A stretch of 64,000 nt of DNA from a virus (IMGVR_UViG_3300028283_000231); one strand, 5' to 3'; counted from the first letter of the stretch, positions 5,493 through 45,810 are shown. The notes: generated by a model not told the origin, from the letters alone. Translations and numbers: made by a program.

Positions 5493-6247
5493 TTTTTCTT
5501 TTTAAATAAACTCATTATTTTTTCTCTTAATGTGAATAAAGTTACCATTAATCCGAAAAATCCTGTTATATAAATCCAATTTAATTTGATCCAATTCCAA
5601 AATTTAGTCATAGGACTTATATAAACATAAATTTTATCCTCATAAATTTTTAAAGATTTATTATGATCACCCACTATCATATCTACACTCATAACCAATT
5701 CACTTTTACCTCCTTTAATTGGAGTTACTCTCCATTGCCATAAAGTGTAATCACTGCCCTGAGTTTCAACTAATTGTACTGAATCAGTAATGGCGACAAT
5801 AATAAAATTCTTTCTTGTTGGATCAATAAGTCTAGCTTTCATAACTGGTGTTATTCTAACAGTTTGAGTAGTTACATTTCCAGGATTATGTTGAAATGTT
5901 CCCACTTGACTAACAACTTGTCCTGTTGGCATTTTATAAGATACCGCTAATTCAACTGTATCACATACACCGTAACTCATAGTATCTTTAATGAGATGGG
6001 TAATATTTCCAATTTTAGATGATTGCATTTCAGCTATCATGGAGTCAGGTATTACCATTATCAACATTTGTGGATGAACTATAGCCGGGGACATAGTAAC
6101 AGCTTTTTCAGCTTGTACAGCAGCGACAGAATCAACTGTTCTAATTGAATCTGCTATTGCTTTTTCGGCTCTTTCTGAACAACTTGGTCCGCAAGATGCG
6201 ATGAAAATCACAATAAATAAAAATAATAATCCTAATAATTTTCTCAT
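5489..6247 (-). CDS. Lipoprotein with C-terminal transmembrane helix
   Basis: N-terminal lipobox-like IASC and hydrophobic C-terminus. Confidence 0.65.
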   Translation of the reverse strand: MRKLLGLLFLFIVIFIASCGPSCSERAEKAIADSIRTVDSVAAVQAEKAVTMSPAIVHPQMLIMVIPDSMIAEMQSSKIGNITHLIKDTMSYGVCDTVELAVSYKMPTGQVVSQVGTFQHNPGNVTTQTVRITPVMKARLIDPTRKNFIIVAITDSVQLVETQGSDYTLWQWRVTPIKGGKSELVMSVDMIVGDHNKSLKIYEDKIYVYISPMTKFWNWIKLNWIYITGFFGLMVTLFTLREKIMSLFKKKK

Positions 6248-6468
6248 TTTTGTCTTGTGTTATTTTTCATTTCATAATCTTCGATAACTCCACTAGCCCC
6301 ACTATGTCCAGAAACCCTGTGGCTTCCTCTGGATGATTCATCTCCCCCACTTGTACCAGGTGGTGGATCACCGCTTATACCTGTAATTTGTTCTTCTTCT
6401 TCCATTATTTCAGTTTTTGTTATATGAATGAGGTTACATAGTTCCAGCATTTTTCTTTTTTGGACCAA
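6244..6468 (-). CDS. Hypothetical protein
   Basis: ORF track; start uncertain. Confidence 0.4.
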   Translation of the reverse strand: MVQKRKMLELCNLIHITKTEIMEEEEQITGISGDPPPGTSGGDESSRGSHRVSGHSGASGVIEDYEMKNNTRQK

Positions 6469-6513
6469 CTATGTTTCCTATTGCAAAACCTATAAACCAA
6501 GATAATTTACTTC

Positions 6514-7062
6514 TCATATAAACCCCTTTTCACTAAAAACCTCAGCCTCAAATGTATATATTTCAGCACTTTGCCAATCACCCCAACTACCACCCATTTT
6601 ATCTTGAACACAATGTCCTAAAAATTCAATTAAACTCCAATCGTTTTCAACAGCAACTTGTGGCAAAAAAACACCACTTCTATTTTGTTTAGTCATAAGA
6701 ATTCCGTGTTTACCTATTTCTATTTCATCTATATCTCTAATTTTTCTAAAAGGCGTTAAAACAGATATTTCTATATCAATATTTTTCATTTCATCTAACT
6801 GAATTTGAGCAAATCTATCGTCTTCAAAAGCTGATAATAAAGCTACATTTTTAATCACTTTATATAAAGGGTAATCAACATTAAATTTACCTATACATCC
6901 TCTCAATTTACCTTCTTTATGTAAAGTCACAAATGCACCACAATGTGCTTGTAAAACTTTACTATTGCTAACAGGTGTATAATTAATGTTGTTAAGTGAT
7001 TGAGTAATAGTTTCTCTTGCTATATTTAATAATTCTTTTCTATCTTTATCTCTTAATCGCAT
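6514..7062 (-). CDS. AMMECR1-domain protein (AmmeMemoRadiSam system protein A-like)
   Basis: GAFVTLHKEGKLRGCIG, DDRF, IEISVLTP and GVFLPQVA motifs. Confidence 0.88.
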   Translation of the reverse strand: MRLRDKDRKELLNIARETITQSLNNINYTPVSNSKVLQAHCGAFVTLHKEGKLRGCIGKFNVDYPLYKVIKNVALLSAFEDDRFAQIQLDEMKNIDIEISVLTPFRKIRDIDEIEIGKHGILMTKQNRSGVFLPQVAVENDWSLIEFLGHCVQDKMGGSWGDWQSAEIYTFEAEVFSEKGFI

Positions 7063-7186
7063 ATAATTTTCCTCTGTTTTATATATTAAAATTTACTTTC
7101 CAAAGACTGAAAATATTTTATAAATTGACTTCTATTTATTAATATATAGTGTTACATCATTGATGTTTAAATAAATTTTTAACTAT

Positions 7187-7835
7187 ATGAGTGAATATTA
7201 TGTATATTGTTTACTAGATCCAAGAAAGGTGAATTTTCTTATGAAAAAAATTGGGACTACAACCGATAAAATTAAAGATCTATGAAAATTTAGAAGAATA
7301 AGATGCTCTAAATAAAGAAATGGATTTGATTAAAATTATTGGAAGAAAAGATTTAAAAACAGGGGAACTATTAAATCTGACTAATGGTGGAGAAAATAAT
7401 TGGTGTAAATTTAAACATTTTCAATTAACCCAGTCCATTTTTAGCTTCCACCTAACCTGAATAATTAAAGATTGGGGAATAGAAGAACAAAATAAAATAA
7501 GAGTGTTTCGTGGTGTAAGAATGATGGAAAATAACCCTATGAAAAATCCAGACATTGCTAAAAAATGTGGAGATTCTAAAAGGGGATTATTACATACTGA
7601 TGAATATAAATTAAAAATGAGTGTTTCTTTGAAAAATTCTACAAAACATAAAATATCAACTAGTGGCACTGAAAATAAAGAAATTCATAGAATAATTCAA
7701 GAAAAAAATATGAAACCAGTTCTACTGTTTGATATAAATATGAATTTTATAAAAGAATATCCTAGTATAATGGAAGCATCAAGACAAATTAATATTAGAA
7801 AAGGGAACATTAGTAATGTATTAAATGGTAGGTAA
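7187..7835 (+). pseudogene. Degenerate GIY-YIG/NUMOD homing endonuclease
   Basis: Starts YYVYCLLDPR; another frame reads IYENLEE*DALNKEMDLIKIIGRKDLKTGELLNLTNGGE; C-terminal NUMOD1-like YPSIMEASRQ (ORF 7503-7835). Confidence 0.75.
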
Positions 7836-7851
7836 AAAACAATGGAGGGTT

Positions 7852-8160
7852 ATGAATTTTTTAATTTTTTTATTATCTACAATAGGTTGCACTCTAATAA
7901 TAACAATTTCTTTTATTTTTAAAAATATTAGAGATAAAGCCAAAACTATTAATCCACTTTTCGGTAAATTATTGTCATGTAGTCAATGTACTGGTTTTTA
8001 TGTCGCCTTAGTTATACAATCTATCATTTTAATACACGAAAGAATAAGTATTTCATTTACTTGGTTCGATTTATATTATATTCTATATGGGTTCATAGGA
8101 AGTTTTGTTTGCTACCTTGTTTATTTATTAATAAAACCATTGATAGACAAGCACGACTGA
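7852..8160 (+). CDS. Small membrane protein with CxxC, DUF1360-like
   Basis: LLSCSQCTGFYV between hydrophobic helices. Confidence 0.55.
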   Translation: MNFLIFLLSTIGCTLIITISFIFKNIRDKAKTINPLFGKLLSCSQCTGFYVALVIQSIILIHERISISFTWFDLYYILYGFIGSFVCYLVYLLIKPLIDKHD

Positions 8161-8164
8161 GAAA

Positions 8165-8637
8165 TCATGCAAAATCATGATATAATAACTATACTTACTT
8201 TTATTACTTAACTTTTCTGAATCTTGATCCCTTATATATCTGTTCAGTTTTAACACATTTTGTAATTACATGTCTTTCTATATCAGTTTGTCTTGATGCT
8301 TCTCTGATACTAGAATAAGTTCCTATTATTTTCGTATCGCAATCTACTGTTCGATTAAGTATTTAAGTTTCTGATTATTTATCCATTCTTCTGAACAAAC
8401 AATATTTTTATGATTATCTGAATTTACTTAAAATCTTATTTACCTTCTTTTTATTGGTATCCCTTTTTAAATACCATTCTTTAATATGGTGCAATATTCT
8501 ATTTTTTGATCCTTTACCTACATAAAAAGGTTCAAAATTAAATGTAAATTACCATATATAAATTCATCTTCGTGTCTAGAATCTAAATAACAGTACACGT
8601 AATACACATTTTTACGTGTACCATCCTTAACATCCAT
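8165..8637 (-). pseudogene. Degenerate GIY-YIG/NUMOD1 homing endonuclease
   Basis: VYYVYCYLDSR...then, after a frameshift, EPFYVGKGSKNR; distal fragment IIGTYSSIREASRQT. Confidence 0.7.
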
Positions 8638-8696
8638 TTGCGCAATGAGCTACTGCCCTCAACATATATCTTTTCATGTTCTTATATATTAAAATT

Positions 8697-9359
8697 TCAA
8701 TCTAATTTTATGTTTTTAGTATTATCTTTAAATCTTTCTTCTATGAAGGTATAATCTACATTTTGTTTTTCTATATCTGAAAAAGAAGCTAATTGAGTTG
8801 CCACTATTGGATTAACTACTAAACATAAATTTTTCTTTTGAAAATAATTAGCCATAAATACGTCTAGTATGTCTTGAAATTCAATTTTTTCTAATCCTTC
8901 ATATTTTCTTATAAAAAAATCGTAAGTTTTATTTCTATAACAAAAAGCGTGGCAAGCAAAAGCATTTTTCAAAATAAGGATATTTGGTTTAGATTTAGTA
9001 ATAAGTTTAAGAGGTTCATGAGTATTGGCGCCGAGATAAAACAACCACCAATCCAGATTACCAATTTGAGATAAAGATTTTCCTAAAATATTAATAGTAT
9101 CATTAATGAAATGCACATCATCTTCAAAGACAAGAACGTTATTTAACCCTTTTTCTTTAGCTATTTTAATAATAGCCAAATTAGATTTGATTATACCTAA
9201 ACGGCCGTCTTTTTCTTTTATAGCTGAAAATCTTTGTACTCTGTCAAGTACACCAACACTTTCAAATTCTTTTTGAGCGTGTTCCCAACGATCAGTTCTA
9301 TGATCGAGATTAATACAATAAATTTCCTCAAAGAAATTCCACACCTTATTATATTCCAC
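8697..9359 (-). CDS. Glycosyltransferase family 25-like
   Basis: YCINLDHRTDRW, RFSAI and VLVFEDD motifs. Confidence 0.82.
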   Translation of the reverse strand: MEYNKVWNFFEEIYCINLDHRTDRWEHAQKEFESVGVLDRVQRFSAIKEKDGRLGIIKSNLAIIKIAKEKGLNNVLVFEDDVHFINDTINILGKSLSQIGNLDWWLFYLGANTHEPLKLITKSKPNILILKNAFACHAFCYRNKTYDFFIRKYEGLEKIEFQDILDVFMANYFQKKNLCLVVNPIVATQLASFSDIEKQNVDYTFIEERFKDNTKNIKLD

Positions 9360-9420
9360 GATATGTTTTTTAATAAATTATAATAAAAATATGAAATGAA
9401 GTTTAAAATTTATAATAATA

Positions 9421-10128
9421 TCAAGATATTAAATTTAAAAGAAGATTATCAGTATACGTATATTCAATTCTAACTGATCCACCACCACCATTACCACCAT
9501 TGACATTATTTGATATTCTATACCCACCACCACCTCCACCACCATAAGCTTTTCCATTTTCACCAGACCCTTCTGTTCCTGTTCTACCAGATCCACCAGA
9601 ACCATTTATATTATATACACCACCAGGACCGGGTGTTGCGCCAGTTCCGGCGTCATTACCTTTGTTGGCATCACCAGCTCCTCCACCTCCGCCGCCTCCA
9701 CCATTACTATTATTTTTACCGCCTTTACCACCACTATATAAGAAATCACCAGTACCAGCAGCACTATCTCCACCTGTTTGTCCAGTGGCACTATTTAATG
9801 AACAACCATTTCCACCATCAGCCGAACAAAGAACGACATAAGACATTCCAACTGGTGTTGTTACAACACTATCACCACCGTCTATTGACCCTAATCCGTT
9901 TCCATTACCACCGGACCCAACGATTATATCTAATTTTACTGCGGGATATGTATCGCGATAAAAAACACTACATGCTCCTCCGCCACCGCCTCCGCCTCCA
10001 CCAGCTGTTGTTCTTCTTCCACCAGCACCACCGCCAGCCCAACATGTAATTGTTAATCTGCTAACACTTAAAGGTAAATCGTGTATTGTTGTTCCTGTCG
10101 TTGTCCACGTAAATGAAAAAGTGCCCAT
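9421..10128 (-). CDS. Glycine-rich domain protein, probable virion/tail-associated
   Basis: WAGGGAGG...GGGGGG and GGGSVRIEY pattern. Confidence 0.65.
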   Translation of the reverse strand: MGTFSFTWTTTGTTIHDLPLSVSRLTITCWAGGGAGGRRTTAGGGGGGGGGACSVFYRDTYPAVKLDIIVGSGGNGNGLGSIDGGDSVVTTPVGMSYVVLCSADGGNGCSLNSATGQTGGDSAAGTGDFLYSGGKGGKNNSNGGGGGGGGAGDANKGNDAGTGATPGPGGVYNINGSGGSGRTGTEGSGENGKAYGGGGGGGYRISNNVNGGNGGGGSVRIEYTYTDNLLLNLIS

Positions 10129-36944: not shown

Positions 36945-37628
36945 ATGAAAAAGATTCAAATCGAAATCATGGCTTCCGAGGGAGGTAATGATTCAAAACT
37001 ATTAGTGGTAGATCTTATGGATATTTATATCAGATCAGCAAAAAACCAAAACTTCAATTGAAGAGTAGTTGAAGTCAAAGATGGTTTTGCTTCGATATGA
37101 ATAGAAGGTGATAGCGTAAACAAATTTTACGCAAACGAAAGTGGAGCACATTGCTTTTCGAGGATACCACCAACAGAAAGAAATGGTAGAACTCAAACAA
37201 GTATAGTTAAAGTGGCGATAATGAACCCAGAAAAAGAAGCGGGATACGTTTTGAATAGAAATGATGTAACAAAAAATTATATCAGATCTTCAAAAAAAGC
37301 GGGTGGCCAAAATTTAAACAAAGTTTCTTCTTGTGTTCAATTAATACATATTCCAACTGGTATTCAGGTTAAAGTTCAGGACACAAGAGATCAAACCAAA
37401 AATGAAATTATCGCGTGGGAAAGATTGACTCAAAAATTAAAAGTCATCGAAGACAAGAACGATCGTGAAAAAATTGATAACAAACGCAAGGATCAAATTG
37501 GAGAACATGGTAGAGGAAATAAAAGAAGAACATACAGATTGAAAGAAGATATCGTGCAAGATCATATCACTGGCAAATCATGTAGATGGAAGGATATATT
37601 GAAAGGTAAAATAGAGTTACTTTTCTAA
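36945..37628 (+). CDS. prfA: RF1-type peptide chain release factor (lacking domain 1) with two in-frame TGA codons
   Basis: IEIMASEGG, NESGAH, RIPPTERNGRTQTS (PxT) and GGQNLNK all lie in one frame; TGA at 37059-37061 and 37098-37100. Confidence 0.85.
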
Positions 37629-37784
37629 TTTTTCTTTGAATTTTTCACTTATTTTTATATATTTTTCGTTGTTTAAAGTCAGATTTTTTAATCTTAGTAT
37701 TTTTTATTTGAAGAAAAAATTCTTAACTTTGAATATAATCTTCAATTAGGTCATACAAGTTTTTATATATAAAGTAAAAACTTT

Positions 37785-38423
37785 ATGAATTTCACAATAT
37801 ATGGATTGAAGGAGAAGGGCAATGATGAAATCAAATATATTGGTTTAACAACATCTAAATTAAGCATTAGATTCAGTAAACATTTAAGTGATAAAAAGGT
37901 TGATCATAAAACCAATTGGATAAAAAAAATTGGCAAGGATAATGTTGAAATTGTTGTTATAGAAGATGAAATATCAGATATAGATACATTACATGAAAAA
38001 GAGATATTTTATATTAATAAATATAAAAAGGAAGGCCATAATTTAACTAATATAACTAATGGTGGAGAAGGCTGGTATAATATGGTTTTCTCAGATGAAC
38101 ACAAAAAAAATATTAGTTTAAATCATGCTGATGTAAGTGGAGAAAATAATCCCATGTTTGGTAAAGAACACACTATTAATGTGAAAAATAAAATAAGGGA
38201 TTTTAGATTGAATTATAAAATTTCAGATGAAACAAAAGAAAAAATGAAGTGTAGTAAATTAGGTGAAAAAAATACTAATGTTAAATTAACATCCGATGAT
38301 GTATTGAAAATAAGACAATACGTTAATGAATACACACAAAAGGAATTAGCATCTATGTTTAATGTTAAACCTGGGGCAATTAGTAAGATAATAAATCACA
38401 CTACTTGGAAACATTTAAAATGA
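37785..38423 (+). CDS. GIY-YIG homing endonuclease with NUMOD3 repeats
   Basis: IYGL...KYIGLT, LTNITNGGEG and GENNPMFGKEHT. Confidence 0.85.
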   Translation: MNFTIYGLKEKGNDEIKYIGLTTSKLSIRFSKHLSDKKVDHKTNWIKKIGKDNVEIVVIEDEISDIDTLHEKEIFYINKYKKEGHNLTNITNGGEGWYNMVFSDEHKKNISLNHADVSGENNPMFGKEHTINVKNKIRDFRLNYKISDETKEKMKCSKLGEKNTNVKLTSDDVLKIRQYVNEYTQKELASMFNVKPGAISKIINHTTWKHLK

Positions 38424-38962
38424 ATTATATGAGTTATTTTGATAATTTCGTTTTGGCGCCTTATATTTTAAAAGCGACAGCTCTTATAGGGGTTCATCGT
38501 AAATGTGGCGGAAATCAATTTCGTCATCAATTCGCAACACTTGGAATCTTATTAGACTATAAATATTTCAATGATTCGGTTCTTTTAAAAGCCGCGTTGT
38601 TGCATGATATTATAGAGGACGTTGTCGATTCAGAAATGGATGCTATTCGTTCTTTAGATGGTGACGGACAAGCAGTTATAAACTTAGTACAAGAAGTATC
38701 TAAAAGTAAGGAGGAGACTAAGGCTGATTATCTTAAAAGAATTTTGGAAACTGGTTCGGATAGGGCTAAGATTTTGAAATGTGCAGATAGAATCAGTAAT
38801 CTTACTGATATGCACTTAGATACACATACATCAGGTAAGATAGCACAATATCTTGATCAGACTGAGCGGTATATTATTCCAATGGCTCTTTCTATTTCTA
38901 ATCTTGATTTTGTAAGGGAATTAGCAGATTTAATTATTCAGAGAAGATTATTAATTGCGTGA
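38420..38962 (+). CDS. HD-domain hydrolase (SpoT/Mesh1-like)
   Basis: AALLHDIIED and LKCADRISNL. Confidence 0.8.
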   Translation: MNYMSYFDNFVLAPYILKATALIGVHRKCGGNQFRHQFATLGILLDYKYFNDSVLLKAALLHDIIEDVVDSEMDAIRSLDGDGQAVINLVQEVSKSKEETKADYLKRILETGSDRAKILKCADRISNLTDMHLDTHTSGKIAQYLDQTERYIIPMALSISNLDFVRELADLIIQRRLLIA

Positions 38963-39230
38963 AATGGACAACACGGTTGAAGTAGCAAAAGATTTCATTA
39001 AGGATATTGATGAAATTATAGAAGAAGGTTGGTCGGAAGACAGGGATTATCTAGCCGAACAATTTGTTAAATATGCTAGTTTAATTGATAATAAAATGAT
39101 AACTAAAGATTGTCAGGCGTTAGATTTTAAAAATTGTGAATACTGGCAAAATACATTATACGGTTGTTCTAGCTGTTATCATTGGCATAAATTCGAAACG
39201 AATTCAAAATTTAATTATAATATAACTTGA
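38955..39230 (+). CDS. Hypothetical protein
   Basis: ORF track. Confidence 0.5.
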   Translation: MREMDNTVEVAKDFIKDIDEIIEEGWSEDRDYLAEQFVKYASLIDNKMITKDCQALDFKNCEYWQNTLYGCSSCYHWHKFETNSKFNYNIT

Positions 39231-39562
39231 ACACAACTCTTTATAGACCAGTAAATAAAGCAGAATTGGATCTTATCATAGCAAGCGATTGGACCCAATT
39301 TCCACCACGTTTACCCGAGCAACCAATATTCTATCCAGTTCTTAGTTTAAGTTACGCTAAGAAAATAAACGAATGGAACGTAAACGCTTACGGTGAAGGG
39401 TTTATAGTGGAATTTCAAATTGATAATATGTATTTAGTTATACATAATATTGATGTTCATAATGTTGGAGATAAAGACGATAATGAATTTTGGATAAGAG
39501 CAGATCAATTAGATTCTTTCAATAAAAATATAGTAGGAAAAATAAAATTATGTATTACATAG
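39227..39562 (+). CDS. ADP-ribosylation/crystallin J1-like small protein
   Basis: LYRPV...EL...FPPRLPEQPIFYPVL...YA. Confidence 0.7.
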   Translation: MNTTLYRPVNKAELDLIIASDWTQFPPRLPEQPIFYPVLSLSYAKKINEWNVNAYGEGFIVEFQIDNMYLVIHNIDVHNVGDKDDNEFWIRADQLDSFNKNIVGKIKLCIT

Positions 39563-40344
39563 TACAAGAAAGATTATACAGAGAAGACGAGTGGGACGAT
39601 CTTATTCACGCACTGGAAAGATTCAATCTTAATTACGAGATTGTTAAACTTATTCCATTCGTTGACGATTTTGAATTTGAGACAAAAGAAAAAAATGTCT
39701 TTTGTTTTGGTGCGCTTAAGATGGCAAGACTTGCTCCAAAGTACGGTTGGTATCCTGGAATTCTTATGACGCCTAATCACGATTTTAATGTTTATAAAGA
39801 ATATTACAAAGAAAACTTATTGAATTATGACTCAAAAATATACAGAATATCCGAAGATTTTGAATGGAACGGTGATTTCTTTGTTAGGCCTGTATTGGAC
39901 ACTAAGATTTTTAATGGAAGACCTTATGCCATGCAAGACTGGAAAAAAGAAAGCAATCGTCTCTTGTGTAACTCCAAAAGTGATAAGGATAATGGAATAA
40001 CCAACATAGTTAGCGAAGACACTCTTATACAAGTTAGTAGTCTTAAAAATATTCAAAAAGAATTTAGATTCTATATCGTTGATGGTAAGATAGCTACAGC
40101 GAGCCTTTATAAAGAAGGATATTTTGTGAGGTATAGTGATATAGTTGATCAAGGGGCTATAGATTATTGTAACGAGATGATAAAAGTGTTTCAGTTGGCT
40201 GACGCTTTTGTAATGGATATTTGTTTGACTGACGATGAGTGGAAGATAATTGAGTGTGGTTGCCTTTCGTGCGCTGGTCTCTACAAAGCTAACATACCTA
40301 AACTTCTAATGGCATTAGAAGATAAATTTAACATTGAGATATAA
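39550..40344 (+). CDS. ATP-grasp domain protein (DUF4343/R2K-like)
   Basis: FVRP...K.F.G, EFRFYIVDGKI, AFVMDI and IIECGC. Confidence 0.75.
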   Translation: MYYIVQERLYREDEWDDLIHALERFNLNYEIVKLIPFVDDFEFETKEKNVFCFGALKMARLAPKYGWYPGILMTPNHDFNVYKEYYKENLLNYDSKIYRISEDFEWNGDFFVRPVLDTKIFNGRPYAMQDWKKESNRLLCNSKSDKDNGITNIVSEDTLIQVSSLKNIQKEFRFYIVDGKIATASLYKEGYFVRYSDIVDQGAIDYCNEMIKVFQLADAFVMDICLTDDEWKIIECGCLSCAGLYKANIPKLLMALEDKFNIEI

Positions 40345-41144
40345 TCTTCTTCTAATCTTTTATTTTTAGAAGAATTAGTGGATCTTGTTGTTATACATAA
40401 GTTATCGATGGATGATATAATTGATGGTAATATACCGTTATCAAATCCATGTTTTATGGATATTTTATGATCTATTGTTGGATATTTTTTATCATTACTA
40501 TTTAAGATTAAATCGTTTTTAATATATTCACCAGTGTAATGATCGAATCCGTCCCATTTATCAAAAACCTGATTAGCAATTAGTAAGGTATATTTATTAA
40601 CTAATAATTCATATTTATGATAATCGCTTCTTTCTTCACGAGAAGACCATCTCTTACTTACAACATTAGATATATACATTTTTTCTTTAACTTCTTCACT
40701 CATAGTTGGATACGGGACATTTAATTTTTCCATACACGTATTCACTTTTTTCAGCTTTATATCTGGTCTTTGAGATGGATGTTCAAATCCATATTTTTTC
40801 AAATTTGTAATTTTAAATTTATTTTTACCTATTTCTGATTGTATTGAAACCTCGGTTCCATAATTTTTTAAGCAAGTTTGTTTACTCTTATCGTTTGAAC
40901 ATTTTTGGGAACAGGAATAATAACCATAGTTATTTACACTTTTCATATATTCTCTATATTGTAATATTTTAATTTTTTCACAAACATCACATTTAACTGT
41001 TATTTTAACAGGACTGCCTGATATTAAATCATTTATATTAACAATAAAAATATCATACATTTTTGTAAAAATATAACCTTTATCAACATAATATTTTTTA
41101 TTGTTACTGTTCCAAGTCATTTTAACTTCTTTATCTAAAATCAT
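40281..41144 (-). CDS. Homing-endonuclease-like protein (Zn ribbon, KYG repeats, HNH-like C-terminus)
   Basis: CDVC, CSQKC and YPTIDHKISIK...NLCITT...NSSK. Confidence 0.65.
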   Translation of the reverse strand: MILDKEVKMTWNSNNKKYYVDKGYIFTKMYDIFIVNINDLISGSPVKITVKCDVCEKIKILQYREYMKSVNNYGYYSCSQKCSNDKSKQTCLKNYGTEVSIQSEIGKNKFKITNLKKYGFEHPSQRPDIKLKKVNTCMEKLNVPYPTMSEEVKEKMYISNVVSKRWSSREERSDYHKYELLVNKYTLLIANQVFDKWDGFDHYTGEYIKNDLILNSNDKKYPTIDHKISIKHGFDNGILPSIISSIDNLCITTRSTNSSKNKRLEEDYISMLNLSSNAIRSLGMLAL

Positions 41145-41417
41145 AATATATAAAATTCTTTTTCATTTATAACATCATTCTTAATAAGATCTGTATATAT
41201 TAAATGTTCAATATATTTAGATTTATTTTGAAAATTATCTTCCAAGTATGTCTTTATCTTATCATCTAATGTTATTGATATTTTAACTCTTGATTTTACT
41301 TTTTTCATATTAATAGGGTTTTAATAGTATATATTAATAAAATAAAGTCATATTTTTCTATTTTGGTTTTTTTATTCAAAATAAATTAGTAAATTTGTAA
41401 TTCAAAAAAAAATAGTT

Positions 41418-41582
41418 ATGGGAAGACCTAAAGTTAAAGACAAGAAAGTATCTATATCTGTTACTATTAACGAAAAACTTAATCAGGAACTAGACAAGTT
41501 TCTGGTTGAGAATAATTTAAGTAAATCGGAGTATATAGAATATCTAATCAAGAAAAACAATCCTAATTTAGATCAGAAATAA
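41418..41582 (+). CDS. Small ribbon-helix-helix DNA-binding protein (54 aa)
   Basis: Manual translation MGRPKVKDKKVSISVTINEKLNQELDKF...SKSEYIEYLI. Confidence 0.65.
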   Translation: MGRPKVKDKKVSISVTINEKLNQELDKFLVENNLSKSEYIEYLIKKNNPNLDQK

Positions 41583-42284
41583 ATGGATTTTACAAAGTTT
41601 ACAGTTAAAGCAAAAACCGCAATCCAAAAGGCTAGAGAGATTGCCCAAGTCAAAGGACATAAATCTATTGAAACTTCACATATTCTTAAAGGGATTATGT
41701 TAGTTGACGATAATGTTGCTCCTTACATTCTTAAAAAGATGAATGTTGACGTTGACCTTCTTATGAAGATCGTTGATAATATTATAAAATATTATCCAAG
41801 AGATCTCATTAGTAGAGAACACTTGTCACCTTACTCAAATCAGGCATTAGATAGAGCTATCACTTATTCTCTTGAATATGGTGATGAGTTTGTTTCTGTT
41901 GAACATATTCTTATGGGTATTCTTGGTGGAACAGACGTTTTAGCTAAAGAGTTTGTAAAAGAAGGTATTACAATAGAAGGGATTAAATCTGGTTTAGAAG
42001 ATATTAGAAAAGGTGTTAAAATCACTTCTCCAGAAGCTGATATAGCAATCAACGCCACAAATAAATATACTAGAAATCTTAATGAATTGGTAAAAGCAGG
42101 CAAACTTGACCCAGTTATCGGAAGAGACGACGAAATTAAAAGAATTCTTCAAATTCTTTCAAGGAGAACAAAAAATAATCCACTTATCATAGGTGAATCG
42201 GGATGTGTAGACGGTGATACTATTATTACTATTAGAAAAATTTCAAATGATACTACACATGAAAATATAGAAATAGACTATTAA
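41583..42284 (+). CDS. clpB: ClpB N-terminal fragment fused to a 26-aa split-intein N-part
   Basis: Clp N-domain, LDPVIGRDDEI, NNPLIIGESG then CVDGDT (intein block A) starting at 42204. Confidence 0.9.
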   Translation: MDFTKFTVKAKTAIQKAREIAQVKGHKSIETSHILKGIMLVDDNVAPYILKKMNVDVDLLMKIVDNIIKYYPRDLISREHLSPYSNQALDRAITYSLEYGDEFVSVEHILMGILGGTDVLAKEFVKEGITIEGIKSGLEDIRKGVKITSPEADIAINATNKYTRNLNELVKAGKLDPVIGRDDEIKRILQILSRRTKNNPLIIGESGCVDGDTIITIRKISNDTTHENIEIDY

Positions 42285-42341
42285 ATTTTTATATATAACT
42301 TTATCAGGGACAGGAAAAAACCTAACCCTGATGAACTAAAT

Positions 42342-43511
42342 ATGGAAATAAATATAAAAGGTAAACAAAAATTAATATTATCTGATTTTATTGAATTTTA
42401 CGATTATGTTATTAATAATATAATTTTTGAATTGAAATTTGATAAAGATAAAAAATTAGAGCGTTTTTATGAAAATAATAATTATATAAATGGAATAAAA
42501 TTATTTAGATTGAAAATAAGATCTATGTATTATAATTTAACAACATTAAAAATTGATTATTGGTTAAGTAGAGGATGGTCATATGATGAATCTGTAAACA
42601 GAATAAAAGAAATACAATCTATTAGAAGTAATATTTCTAAAGAAAAAATGTTAACATTAAAAGAAATAGATTATAAAAAATGGTGTGAAACGCGTAACAC
42701 AAGGAAAGAATTTTATATGAAGAAGGGGTTAACAGAAGAAGAATCTGTAGATCTTTTAAAAGATAGACAAAAAACATTTTCAATAGAATCCTGTATAATT
42801 AAATATGGCGATAATGGATATGATGTGTGGAAGAATAGGCAAATTAAATGGTATAGTAAAATAAAGAATATAGATTGTGATAGAGATTCAAATTCATCTG
42901 ATTTCTATAAAAATAAATATGGTGATAATTGGATTTTTAAAGCAATTGATGATTGTTCTTTTTTAAATAAAGATTTAATTAAAAATATTATTCAAAAAAC
43001 GAATAATGATTTTGTGTTTTTCATTAAAGAATTAGATGAAAGAATAGAAATAGTAGCTTTAAACGACATTTATTTCATATTTAATTCAAAACTATTGCAA
43101 AATTATTTTGGTAAAAATAAAGAAGAATTAACTGAAATAATATTAGGCACATTAAATATAAACATAAAAGGATTTGGAAATATAAGATATTTCAACAGAC
43201 ATATATGTAGAAGTAATGGAGAATATTATATAGCTAAAAAATTAAAAGAACTTAACATAGATTATGTTTATGAGAAAAAATATCCAAATTCAAAATATGT
43301 CTGTGATTTTTATATACCAATTTTAAATCTTTACGTTGAATATATGGGTATGCTAAAAAGTAATTATATACAAGAAAATCGTCTTGACATATATTTAAAA
43401 TATAAAACTAGATATGATGATAAAGAGAAATTTTGTAAAGATAATAATATAAAATATTTATTTAATAATAATATGGTGGAAATAATAAAAAAAATAACAA
43501 ATGGAAATTAA
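42342..43511 (+). CDS. Free-standing endonuclease (PD-D/ExK/Vsr-like C-terminus) between the intein halves
   Basis: KYG repeats; SNGE..IAKKL...YVCDFYIPILNLYVEYMG. Confidence 0.7.
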   Translation: MEINIKGKQKLILSDFIEFYDYVINNIIFELKFDKDKKLERFYENNNYINGIKLFRLKIRSMYYNLTTLKIDYWLSRGWSYDESVNRIKEIQSIRSNISKEKMLTLKEIDYKKWCETRNTRKEFYMKKGLTEEESVDLLKDRQKTFSIESCIIKYGDNGYDVWKNRQIKWYSKIKNIDCDRDSNSSDFYKNKYGDNWIFKAIDDCSFLNKDLIKNIIQKTNNDFVFFIKELDERIEIVALNDIYFIFNSKLLQNYFGKNKEELTEIILGTLNINIKGFGNIRYFNRHICRSNGEYYIAKKLKELNIDYVYEKKYPNSKYVCDFYIPILNLYVEYMGMLKSNYIQENRLDIYLKYKTRYDDKEKFCKDNNIKYLFNNNMVEIIKKITNGN

Positions 43512-45525
43512 AATTGAAGATTTTTATAATTTAATTAAAAATGATGGTGGCACTTTTGAAGTACTAACGCCAGATGGATTTAAATTAATTGGATATGTTT
43601 ATAAAAAAAATAATAAACAAATATATTCAATAAAATTAGAAAATGGTTTAATCTTGAAAGGTTCAAATGATCATCTAGTTAAAATATATACGTATAATAT
43701 TGAAGAAAACAATATTAACCCTAATATAGAAATATTAGATAACGATACATGGATTAGATTTTCTAATATTAAATATAATGATATAATATGCACTAAAATT
43801 GGAGAATTCAGTGTAGTTAAAATTGACAAGTTAAATAAAAATATAACATATGATTTAGAAGTATTGGATGATAGACACCAATATTATTCTAATGATATAA
43901 TTTCTCACAATACTGGTAAAACTGCTGTAGCACTTGGTATAGCACACAAGATTGTTAGTGGTGACGTTCCAGATAGTCTGAAAACTAAACAAATCTATTC
44001 ACTTGACCTCACAAATATTGTATCTGGGGCTAAATATAAAGGTGAATTCGAAGAAAGACTTAAAGGCGTCTTTAACGAAATTATCGCATCCAACGGTGAG
44101 ATCATTCTTTTCATTGATGAGATTCATAACCTCATTGGAACTAACGGGGGTGAAGGTTCAATGGATGGTGCTGATATTCTTAAACCCATATTATCAAGGG
44201 GTGAGATGTTAGTTATTGGTGCTACTACTACAAAGGAGTATCATAAATATTTTGAACAAGATAAATCATTTGAGCGTAGATTTCAAACTGTTACCATTGA
44301 AGAACCAACAGTTGAAGAAGCTATTGCCATCTTAATAGGATTGAAAGGAAAATATGAAACTTTCCACAATGTAACTATTAAAGATGAAGCTGTTGTGGCT
44401 GCAGTAGAACTTTCTAAAAGATATATTTCTAATAGATTTTTACCAGATAAAGCCATTGATATTCTCGATGAGGCCTCTTCTAAATTAAAGTTGGACGCTG
44501 AAGTAAAAGAAAAAGTGGTTGACGCCGATCAAATTGCTATAGTTGTATCGGAAGTAAGTCAAATTCCTGTTAATAAATTAAAAGGCAGTGAAAAGGAAAG
44601 ACTTGTAAATCTTGAAAAAGAATTACATAAAAGGGTTATTGGACAAAATGAAGCCATCAAAGCTGTTTCAGATGCTATACGTAGAAGTAGAACAGGTCTT
44701 CAAGATCCAAAGAAACCCATCGGTTCATTCATATTCCTTGGTACCACAGGGGTTGGAAAAACAGAGCTTGCTAAGGCTCTTGCTGAATTTCTTTTCAATG
44801 ACGAAAATTCTATGGTTAGGATTGATATGTCTGAATACATGGATAAAAGCTCAGCTAGTAAACTTATTGGTTCTGCACCAGGTTACGTTGGTTATGATGA
44901 GGGTGGACAACTCACTGAAGCAGTTAAGAGGAAACCTTATAGTGTAGTTCTCCTTGATGAAATCGAGAAGTCCCACCCAGACGTCTTTAATACACTTTTA
45001 CAGGTATTGGACGACGGTAGATTAACAGACAATAAAGGTTATCTTGTTGATTTCAAGAATACTATTATAGTAATGACTTCAAATCTCGGTTCTAGCATCA
45101 TTCAGTCTAATATGCAAGGAATGACTGATGAGACAAGGGATGAAGTTATTAAGAAAACAAAAGATGAAGTTATCGCGATGTTAAGGAGAACAATTAGACC
45201 AGAACTTCTTAATCGTATTGATGAGACTATTGTATTCCAACCTCTTACAAAATCTGAAATTCTTGATATTGTTAAGATGCAGTTTAATGGTATAAAGAAG
45301 ATGTTAAAGAAGAATGGTGTGGATATGACGGCATCTGATGAAGCTTTAAAACAGATTGCTGAGTGGGGATATGATCCTCAGTTTGGTGCAAGACCTGTTA
45401 AGAGGGTAATTCAGGAAAAAGTTATCAATGTACTTTCTGGTTTAATGTTGGAAGATAAGGTATCGAAAGATAATGCAATATTTATTGATGTAAAGGACGG
45501 TCAGTTATTATTTATAAATAAATAG
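43501..45525 (+). CDS. clpB: 137-aa split-intein C-part fused to the ClpB C-terminal fragment
   Basis: KGSNDHLV, TYDLEV, ISHN then TGKT (rest of Walker A); LFIDEIH; second NBD GTTGVGKTE and LLDEIEK. Confidence 0.9.
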   Translation: MEIKIEDFYNLIKNDGGTFEVLTPDGFKLIGYVYKKNNKQIYSIKLENGLILKGSNDHLVKIYTYNIEENNINPNIEILDNDTWIRFSNIKYNDIICTKIGEFSVVKIDKLNKNITYDLEVLDDRHQYYSNDIISHNTGKTAVALGIAHKIVSGDVPDSLKTKQIYSLDLTNIVSGAKYKGEFEERLKGVFNEIIASNGEIILFIDEIHNLIGTNGGEGSMDGADILKPILSRGEMLVIGATTTKEYHKYFEQDKSFERRFQTVTIEEPTVEEAIAILIGLKGKYETFHNVTIKDEAVVAAVELSKRYISNRFLPDKAIDILDEASSKLKLDAEVKEKVVDADQIAIVVSEVSQIPVNKLKGSEKERLVNLEKELHKRVIGQNEAIKAVSDAIRRSRTGLQDPKKPIGSFIFLGTTGVGKTELAKALAEFLFNDENSMVRIDMSEYMDKSSASKLIGSAPGYVGYDEGGQLTEAVKRKPYSVVLLDEIEKSHPDVFNTLLQVLDDGRLTDNKGYLVDFKNTIIVMTSNLGSSIIQSNMQGMTDETRDEVIKKTKDEVIAMLRRTIRPELLNRIDETIVFQPLTKSEILDIVKMQFNGIKKMLKKNGVDMTASDEALKQIAEWGYDPQFGARPVKRVIQEKVINVLSGLMLEDKVSKDNAIFIDVKDGQLLFINK

Positions 45526-45527
45526 AA

Positions 45528-45749
45528 ATGAATTTACTTTGTTTAATATTTGGTCATAAGAAGATTGTAAGAAATTGGTACCCAACTGATCCGATAACAT
45601 CGTTGGGATGTACAAGATGTAGGAAAACTCTTGATCAGAGACCGAATCCTGGTTATATAGCAGATTGGTATTATTCGGGATTAAGGCAAACTTTTAAAAG
45701 GGTATTTTCAGCAAATGATCCATATGGTGAAGAAATATGGGACGAATAA
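45528..45749 (+). CDS. Hypothetical protein ending in DPYGEEIWDE
   Basis: LLCLIFGHK start. Confidence 0.6.
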   Translation: MNLLCLIFGHKKIVRNWYPTDPITSLGCTRCRKTLDQRPNPGYIADWYYSGLRQTFKRVFSANDPYGEEIWDE

Positions 45750-45810
45750 GATATTTTAAATTTTTTTATAATTAAATTTTTTACTATATTTGTAAAAAAT
45801 ATAGAAAAAT

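Follow-up and report, generated by a model that had tools for sequence, protein, structure and literature searches.

Introduction

Fractured genes, known mainly from phages, are host genes divided between two open reading frames (ORFs) that each carry part of an intein, with an endonuclease gene between them (Dassa et al. 2009, PMC2677866). The accessible text of that study describes overlapping reading frames, hairpins 5′ of the endonuclease genes and a Vsr-like endonuclease family in half of the fractured loci, with hosts that include DnaE, NrdA, NrdJ, IMPDH, DNA ligase and terminase. Here, we analyzed a candidate locus of this kind at positions 41583 to 45525 of a 64,000-nucleotide (nt) stretch of a giant lake phage (IMGVR_UViG_3300028283_000231; the whole stretch is referred to as the window), in which a ClpB/ClpC-like Hsp100 gene is interrupted by what we read as a split intein with a free-standing gene for an endonuclease between its halves. 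The two-ORF host gene, the endonuclease gene between its parts, the overlap and the hairpin are common to the window locus and these fractured genes. The gp41 helicase is reportedly a further host in that set, whose inteins are said to be canonically split into a long N-terminal part (IntN) and a short C-terminal part (IntC), whereas the window intein consists of a 26-amino-acid (aa) IntN and a 137-aa IntC. A text search of the 2009 study for Clp, chaperone and ATPase gave no occurrence, and the terms "atypical" and "split site" are absent as well (PMC2677866).

Atypically split inteins have an IntN of approximately 15 to 37 aa, and their break lies either after strand β2 (site S1; VidaL and PolB16) or after helix α1 (site S2; AceL-TerL and GOS-TerL); natural representatives whose IntN is chemically accessible are few and comprise these four (PMC13014065). 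AceL-TerL and GOS-TerL, which derive from phage metagenomes, have an IntN of 25 and 37 aa, respectively (Thiel 2014; Bachmann and Mootz 2015; both cited in PMC13014065). The window IntN is similar in length, whereas its break would lie before α1 and not after it. AceL-TerL and GOS-TerL are inserted in a packaging ATPase, and the host of the window intein is also an ATPase. The value of such inteins lies in the semisynthesis and labelling of proteins.

An earlier note, made from the window sequence alone, had described the locus as ClpB fractured by a naturally and atypically split intein. The element belongs to a known kind, fractured genes whose intein is atypically split, and its layout is common in metagenomes; the host protein is new as far as we found. 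Our literature search yielded no paper on an intein in ClpB, ClpC or Hsp100, a description in a subscription journal or an intein database being possible, and the accessible part of the survey by Novikova et al. names no Clp ATPase as a top intein host.

Results

Layout of the locus

We read the locus as a fractured gene in which a split intein and a free-standing homing endonuclease gene (HEG) form a cassette (42204-43911) within the Walker A codons of the first nucleotide-binding domain (NBD1) of a ClpB/ClpC-like Hsp100, and we put the probability of this reading at about 85%. The locus comprises three plus-strand ORFs, namely, ORF1 (41583-42284, 233 aa), ORF2 (42342-43511) and ORF3 (43501-45525, 674 aa), with the following features:

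41583-42203, plus strand: N-extein, 207 codons comprising Clp_N and the start of NBD1 and ending in GESG of Walker A (Pfam, TIGR03346)
42204-42284, plus strand: IntN, 26 codons (Cys1, CVDGDT...IEIDY) and the TAA stop at 42282-42284 (found in eight other N-fragments; absent from the relative L001)
42300-42335, plus strand: hairpin in the 57-nt spacer from the IntN stop to the nuclease ORF (RNAfold, -16.7 kcal/mol)
42342-43511, plus strand: ORF2, 389-aa putative free-standing endonuclease gene (nuclease fold, homologues)
43501-43911, plus strand: IntC, 137 codons with blocks B, F and G and the terminal His-Asn (NCBIfam, phmmer, family alignment)
43912-45525, plus strand: C-extein, 537 codons and stop, comprising Thr+1, GKT, the remaining NBD1, a short linker, NBD2 and D2-small (Pfam)

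ORF1, which reads ...NNPLIIGESG up to the 26-residue IntN and its TAA, matches Pfam Clp_N (E value of 3e-18) and positions 1-208 of the ClpB model TIGR03346. With its ATG at 43501, ORF3 overlaps the last 11 nt of ORF2; after the IntC, it continues with the Thr+1 codon ACT (43912-43914) as TGKTAVALG..., followed by Pfam AAA, AAA_lid_9, AAA_2 and ClpB_D2-small. The Walker A motif of NBD2 (GTTGVGKT) is uninterrupted, the ATPase motifs are complete and both extein frames are open. The coordinates and motifs of the earlier note, that is, the outer bounds of the locus, the 26-aa IntN (42204-42281), the 389-aa ORF, the 137-aa IntC and Thr+1, all hold.

An uninterrupted allele delimits the insertion

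An uninterrupted counterpart of the gene is carried by L001 (LR756501.1), a 735-kb uncultured phage with 89.6% nucleotide identity to the locus over 57% of the locus length. Its clp gene is a single ORF of 744 aa with the Walker A motif GESGVGKT, and the N-extein of the window is 93% identical to it at the aa level. By blastn, window positions 41575-42203 correspond to L001 positions 5992-6621, and window positions 43914-47056 correspond to 6624-9812. Since the L001 gene is uninterrupted and the alignment ends at 42203 and resumes within the +1 codon, window positions 42204-43911 represent a discrete, clean insertion of 1708 bp, and the empty site of LR756501.1 falls in the GGTGAATCTGGAGTTGGTAAAACT region. 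At the DNA level, GGA/GTT in L001 corresponds to GGA/1708 bp/ACT in the window and, at the protein level, GESG-V-GKT corresponds to GESG/intein/T-GKT, so that the sole alteration of the host gene at the insertion site is the exchange of Val for Thr at +1 by two base changes. The GC content of the cassette is 0.21 to 0.24 versus 0.36 in the C-extein. The locus combines two separately terminated and initiated ORFs, a putative endonuclease gene between them and an uninterrupted host allele, the hallmarks of a fractured gene. The interruption of Walker A between GESG and TGKT by an intein, which the earlier note had proposed, is borne out both by this allele and by matches to intein profiles.

The window stems from a metagenome assembly, and the arrangement could in principle reflect a ClpB gene fused by the assembler to unrelated intein and nuclease DNA. 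We regard this explanation as practically negligible, given that the X2 contigs from an independent lake metagenome (42046-43013, 43187-43773 and 43752-44161) cross every junction with zero mismatches and that the same architecture occurs in at least eight other assemblies. The misassembly that the earlier note had named as a possible refutation is thus not supported.

The host protein apparently lacks a middle domain

The earlier note had called the host protein ClpB. Membership in the Hsp100 family stands; the equivalog assignment does not, as the two fragments score 162 and 799 bits against TIGR03346, below its cut-off of 1232. The C-fragment matches this model in two stretches, the best of which resumes at profile position 525, and the middle domain, a long coiled coil in ClpB, is therefore apparently skipped, in agreement with 744 aa for the spliced protein compared with 853 positions in the model. 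We refer to the host protein as a ClpB/ClpC-like Hsp100 that has no middle domain and would measure 744 aa once spliced. Neither ClpS nor ClpP was seen among the window ORFs scanned (37785-40344 and 45811-49643). Two related phage contigs carry a gene for the ClpS adaptor immediately 5′ of the Clp N-fragment (L004, 1168-1467; L013, 1359-1664).

Conserved intein residues on both sides of the break

Within residues 1-137 of ORF3, the IntC carries the intein blocks GSNDHLV (B), TYDLEV (F) and SHN (G). The NCBIfam model intein_Nterm (positions 16-81) matches ORF3 residues 3-60 with an E value of 3.9e-4, and intein_Cterm matches residues 116-138 with 17.9 bits (cut-off, 15.6). A phmmer search of the Protein Data Bank (PDB) with the IntC returned the VidaL intein (4.4e-6) and gp41-1 inteins (8e-5), the engineered consensus CatC being a weak match (0.22). 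The window pair has all the residues expected of a class 1 intein: a Cys directly after GESG (42204-42206), block B, block F, the block G His-Asn and a +1 nucleophile, which is Thr in the window, the same position of L001 being Val.

With ORF3 residues 1-140 as the query, we found 60 metagenomic proteins that open with an IntC followed by a ClpC/ClpB body (E values of 1e-19 to 1e-50; 44% to 70% identity in the intein). All 60 retain [S/H]HN, the nucleophile and GK, the +1 residue being Thr in 59 and Cys in one. In a 30-member alignment, the Ser and His of block B, the Asp and His of block F and the SHN motif do not vary, and the mean pairwise identity is 52% in the IntC versus 65% in the adjoining extein. 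A scan of IMG/VR with the IntC gave no confirmed relative. The search with the N-fragment tail returned mostly contig-truncated ClpB proteins, with an IntN in 2 among the 120 matches listed. The nine N-fragments with an IntN read GE[PS]G, then CV..[DE]T.I...K.S....H.., then stop, and Cys1 is present in all nine as well as in P0060, a 1012-aa protein with a contiguous mini-intein at the NBD1 site and, at the position of the split in its relatives, a linker of about 20 residues that is modelled with low confidence. The IntN is 26 aa long in the window and in three other loci, where its stop is at the same position (P0105, L004 and L006), and 24 to 25 aa long in L008, L009, L010, L011 and L012.

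Split inteins bind each other tightly, and the two pieces could thus form an active ATPase held together by the intein halves as a non-covalent clamp, without any splicing. We consider this very unlikely. A folded HINT domain of 163 residues would then separate GESG from GKT in the Walker A loop; a dimerization module would have no need of Cys1, the His of block B, the His-Asn terminus and a +1 nucleophile, all of which are invariant; and the two base changes that replaced Val with Thr fall precisely at +1.

An exhaustive phmmer search with the IntC alone gave 129 matches. In a pattern screen of the best 77 of the 129, the closest inteins were for the most part IntC domains at the N terminus of their proteins, and their hosts were other P-loop proteins (SHN/[CTS]GK[ST]) and apparent terminases, which places the window intein within a broad clade of atypically split phage inteins that target P-loops. 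Among P0224-P0299, dozens of proteins begin a related IntC at about residue 8, followed by SHN/[CTS]GK[ST] or SHN/TTT. Given these dozens of IntC-first AAA/P-loop ATPases and apparent terminases, an atypical split before α1 seems widespread among phage P-loop proteins.

Different genes separate the halves in related loci

The DNA between the halves varies among the relatives. In L006, it holds a homologue of ORF2 (56% identical) with the same 11-nt overlap, in a frame that differs from that of the N-fragment. ORF2-type genes also lie between the halves in L009 and L010, and the overlap of ORF2 with the IntC ORF recurs in all three loci. L004 has a minus-strand DUF723/Vsr-like gene instead, and L008 has two DUF723/Vsr-like genes between its NBD1 intein halves. 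The gene table of the P0103 contig hints at a minus-strand gene behind an almost identical IntN. In two further loci, the halves are split with no nuclease gene between them: in L011 (1374-8379), the IntN fragment lies 4.4 kb 5′ of the IntC fragment, with about nine ORFs in between, including an IS605 OrfB fragment, and in L012 (5572-9127), a marine Tara contig, two unrelated small non-nuclease ORFs separate the halves. As the intervening genes differ among relatives, the split is old and independent of read-through. A recent nonsense mutation was also considered as the origin of the split, and it is ruled out by the varied intervening genes, frames and strands and by the contiguous P0060.

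These loci also bear on whether the window encodes a contiguous maxi-intein expressed by recoding as a single precursor in which the nuclease domain is nested; ribosomes would read through the TAA that separates ORF1 from ORF2 and would shift frame in the 11-nt overlap to pass from ORF2 to ORF3. ORF1 and ORF2 do share a frame in the window, with one TAA across the 57-nt spacer, for which we roughly estimate a chance of about 6% in AT-rich DNA. The homologous ORFs of L006 are in different frames, the intervening genes of L004 and L008 are on the opposite strand or two in number, and those of L011 and L012 are non-nuclease genes; moreover, the spacer is a conserved hairpin rather than coding DNA, and the ATG of ORF2 itself is conserved in its homologues. 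Recoding is therefore highly improbable, and the shared frame in the window is best read as a coincidence.

A different proposal is that the split intein, beyond being selfish, has been co-opted as a switch, such that activity of the unfoldase would require both halves and a reduced Cys1 thiol, which would make assembly of the ATPase timed or conditional in the course of infection. Translation of the C-fragment would then be tied to the nuclease ORF through the conserved overlap of 11 to 17 nt. The persistence of the split in L012, where the nuclease has been lost, and in L011, with the halves 4.4 kb apart, is compatible with a switch but does not show it, and we regard the proposal as unlikely.

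One relative is a three-piece ClpC gene in L008 (1773-10340). Its first piece is a 117-aa N-fragment with a 24-aa IntN, followed by the two DUF723/Vsr-like nuclease genes; the second (531 aa) consists of an IntC, NBD1 and GNSGTGK with a second IntN of about 37 aa and is followed by a 506-aa nuclease gene; and the third (411 aa) opens with a second IntC (SHN/TELAK). The NBD1 Walker A intein family is common to L008 and the window, whereas the window carries the NBD1 element only. A second IntN is present at the C-terminal end of 15 of the 60 IntC proteins, and P0058 (1088 aa) combines the NBD1 IntC at its start with an intein at the NBD2 Walker A that is contiguous and contains LAGLIDADG. The window protein has kept Clp_N and differs from many of these relatives in having no UVR/middle domain.

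Selection on the exteins

Between the window and L001, the ratio of nonsynonymous to synonymous substitution rates (dN/dS; Nei-Gojobori), taken over both lineages from their divergence onward, amounts to 0.016 in the N-extein and 0.046 in the C-extein, with a dS of about 0.6; the neighbouring cation-efflux gene has a similar value (0.038). The calculation covers the exteins, as the nearest intein relatives with available DNA are 56% to 66% identical at the aa level and dS would saturate. The exteins are under strong purifying selection.

This result speaks to the possibility that the gene is dead, the cassette having invaded recently and the phage having lost the ATPase with the halves left unjoined. 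In favour of this, a 90%-identical relative has an intact gene, Thr is a less reactive +1 residue, and splicing of the window intein is only predicted. We nevertheless consider a dead gene quite unlikely, as the extein dN/dS values are low with both frames intact, the catalytic residues of the intein are retained across 60 diverged homologues (35% to 70% identity), and the two-piece layout has lasted in marine and freshwater lineages, even at a separation of 4.4 kb. The earlier note had inferred a fractured gene with an atypical split and a free-standing endonuclease, and the empty site, the invariant catalytic residues, the fold of ORF2 (see below) and the purifying selection all agree with it.

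Predicted fold and split site

The intein fold was modelled on the contiguous homologue (P0060, residues 233-422), to which the window pair is 45% identical, using AlphaFold2 (AF2) with the family alignment. The model has a mean predicted local distance difference test score (pLDDT) of 84.5 and a predicted template modelling (TM) score of 0.81. Foldseek placed VidaL (6vgv) first (E value of 2.5e-10, TM score of 0.86), and the remaining top 50 matches were inteins (gp41-1, NrdJ-1, RecA, DnaB and others) as well as HINT-type BIL and hedgehog autoprocessing domains. P0060 is thus predicted to adopt the HINT horseshoe fold, and the window pair would do so by homology.

In this model, a strand (residues 15-21) and a short strand (30-31) are followed by the low-confidence linker, a strand (53-57) and helix α1 (58-67). 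According to the family alignment, the window IntC opens at the strand directly before α1 (MEIKIEDFYNLI); the α1 motif IKIEDFYNLI lies inside the window IntC, and phmmer aligned IntC residue 4 with VidaL residue 27. Since the model helix 58-67 is downstream of the break and IntC residue 4 falls at VidaL residue 27, the break lies before α1. Judged from the homologue model, we infer a split site that is S1-like, though not identical to that of VidaL. VidaL (PDB 6VGV), with a 16-aa IntN, is the top sequence match of the IntC and the top fold match of P0060, at about 21% identity. The split before α1 and the dependence on cysteine are common to both, whereas the host protein and the length of the IntN differ, the 26-aa IntN of the window adding, according to the P0060 model, a full β-hairpin (an extra strand); the activity of the window intein is predicted. 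With 26 aa, the IntN is within the range of 15 to 37 aa and is paired with a long IntC. The likeness to AceL-TerL that had been suggested thus stands for the short IntN, but the nearest characterized relative is VidaL and the break appears to be before, not after, α1.

The gene between the halves

ORF2 has 42 homologues, mostly of 390 to 400 aa, many of which share contigs with IntC proteins, and a scan of IMG/VR with ORF2 gave two distant relatives only. ORF2 has no sequence match in Pfam, NCBIfam or the PDB; the profile of 27 homologues gave T7 endonuclease I as its sole, weak match (0.59), and Foldseek with the whole ORF2 model gave no match below an E value of 0.5. The AF2 model (pLDDT of 91) has a C-terminal domain of the PD-(D/E)xK/Vsr fold at about residues 275-389. 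In an exhaustive VIA-align search with residues 281-389, the catalytic domain of I-Bth0305I (3r3p_B) was the best match (Z score of 8.9, root-mean-square deviation of 3.0, 88 of 98 residues aligned), followed by the mitoribosomal chain 9g6k_Li (Z score of 8.1), VRR_NUC, Vsr (1cw0; Z score of 7.8), TnsA and a DUF559 protein. Residues 288-373 additionally match the endonuclease family PHROG 559 (7e-6), and residues 285-381 match the Vsr-like domain of the L004 enzyme by blastp (3e-6). Both the modelled fold and these matches argue for a Vsr-type PD-(D/E)xK nuclease.

The canonical Vsr-like enzyme of L004, which lies between the same intein halves and is homologous to ORF2 at this E value, has acidic residues that align with E294, D322 and E333 of ORF2. 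Among 27 ORF2 homologues, S291, E294, D322, E333 and K361 do not vary, and 23 of the 27 have K339. Where L004 reads E-C-D-G-I-Q-H, the ORF2 family reads E-Y-M-G-x-L-K, with Asp replaced by Met or Leu and, in 23 of 27, His replaced by Lys. The active site of ORF2 looks closer to the classical D...E...K arrangement. The comparison with I-Bth0305I (PDB 3R3P), a member of the Vsr-like family that occurs in half of the fractured loci of Dassa et al., is similar in that the fold is shared whereas the active site differs, K361 being invariant in the ORF2 family. Of the Vsr-like endonuclease that the earlier note had proposed, the Vsr/I-Bth0305I fold holds up and two of the signature residues are absent.

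The N-terminal region of ORF2 is helical and consists of repeated [FY]W..[RK]G...EE modules, which no Pfam model matches. L008 has the same modules in the 506-aa nuclease of its second intein site (6e-11), the pattern [FY]W..[RK]G[WYF]..[ED]E...Q.TFS...C..K[YF]G being found at 42342-43150 of the window and at 7612-8720 of L008. They are presumably DNA-binding repeats of this homing endonuclease lineage. The core of the spacer hairpin, CAGG..GG(G)AAA.ACC, recurs 5′ of ORF2-type genes in L006 and L010, and the hairpin is possibly a control element that arrived together with the nuclease gene.

Predicted splicing and homing

The element is real and probably functional, and splicing is predicted. 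The locus would give three products, ClpN(1-207)-IntN (26 aa), the ORF2 nuclease and IntC (137 aa)-ClpC (537 aa). The IntN would supply the first β-hairpin of the HINT fold and dock on the IntC. A thioester would form at Cys1 and be transferred to the hydroxyl of Thr+1, cyclization of the terminal Asn would release the intein, and the product would be a 744-aa ATPase with the Walker A motif GESGTGKT, for which the expected tryptic junction peptide is NNPLIIGESGTGK. ORF2 would be the mobility enzyme, presumably cutting cassette-free alleles such as GESGVGKT of the 735-kb relative, whose recombinational repair would copy the cassette in. Splicing, the activity and target of the nuclease and the translational coupling of ORF2 and ORF3 are predictions of this scheme.

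Several points weigh against the fractured-gene reading. Splicing is deduced from sequence features, and Thr at +1 is less nucleophilic than Cys or Ser would be. ORF1 has its frame in common with ORF2, closed by a single TAA and continuing with 19 sense codons. M335 stands for Asp and K339 for His in ORF2, and the EDxHD signature (ExDGxxH...D) is thus missing; we therefore place ORF2 as a fold relative only and not in the EDxHD family, and, with two Vsr-like signature residues replaced, its activity and target are uncertain. The dN/dS values, covering both lineages since the split, do not date the invasion. Finally, two metatranscriptome libraries contain sequences identical to parts of ORF1, of ORF2 and of the junction between IntC and extein, which is a weak hint of expression at most, as these are contigs with possible DNA carry-over that give neither level nor strand. 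In favour of the reading, no contig joining 42203 to 43912 with the insert skipped was found among the sample and library contigs. Two joints with sides of 21 to 22 nt in the contig comparison were taken as coming from other organisms.

Implications of the locus

A fractured Hsp100 gene would add a chaperone/unfoldase to a host range of fractured genes that otherwise comprises enzymes of replication, repair and packaging, and the locus adds to the targeting of P-loops by inteins (PMC4760082). The window intein, with Cys1, Thr+1 and a 26-aa IntN, comes with dozens of diverged variants (IntN of 24 to 26 aa; Thr or Cys at +1). Together with the second atypical intein at the NBD2 P-loop of relatives, these NBD1 variants form a panel for orthogonality and extein dependence. 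The two huge phages, about 90% identical and differing in the cassette, are a natural occupied/empty pair well suited to studies of homing. Unless it is recognized as fractured, the gene would be annotated by pipelines as a truncated ClpB, a hypothetical protein and a ClpC with an odd N terminus.

Neighbouring genes

The window has a GC content of about 30% and carries an array of 15 tRNA genes. A second insertion relative to LR756501.1 lies directly 5′ of clp (stretch 40281-41582), with window positions 40332-41574 corresponding to L001 positions 5941-5991. It contains a minus-strand ORF of 287 aa that matches Pfam DUF7487 and PHROG homing endonuclease and endonuclease VII families and has an HNH-like C terminus, as well as two small paralogous ORFs of the Arc/CopG-like ribbon-helix-helix type (41141-41308, minus strand; 41418-41582, plus strand). 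Farther upstream, a free-standing homing endonuclease gene of the GIY-YIG type with NUMOD3 is located at 37785-38423, and nothing in the syntenic region of LR756501.1 corresponds to the window stretch of approximately 37625-38436 around it. With ORF2, the HNH-like ORF of the upstream insertion and the GIY-YIG gene, the neighbourhood holds at least three mobile nuclease genes.

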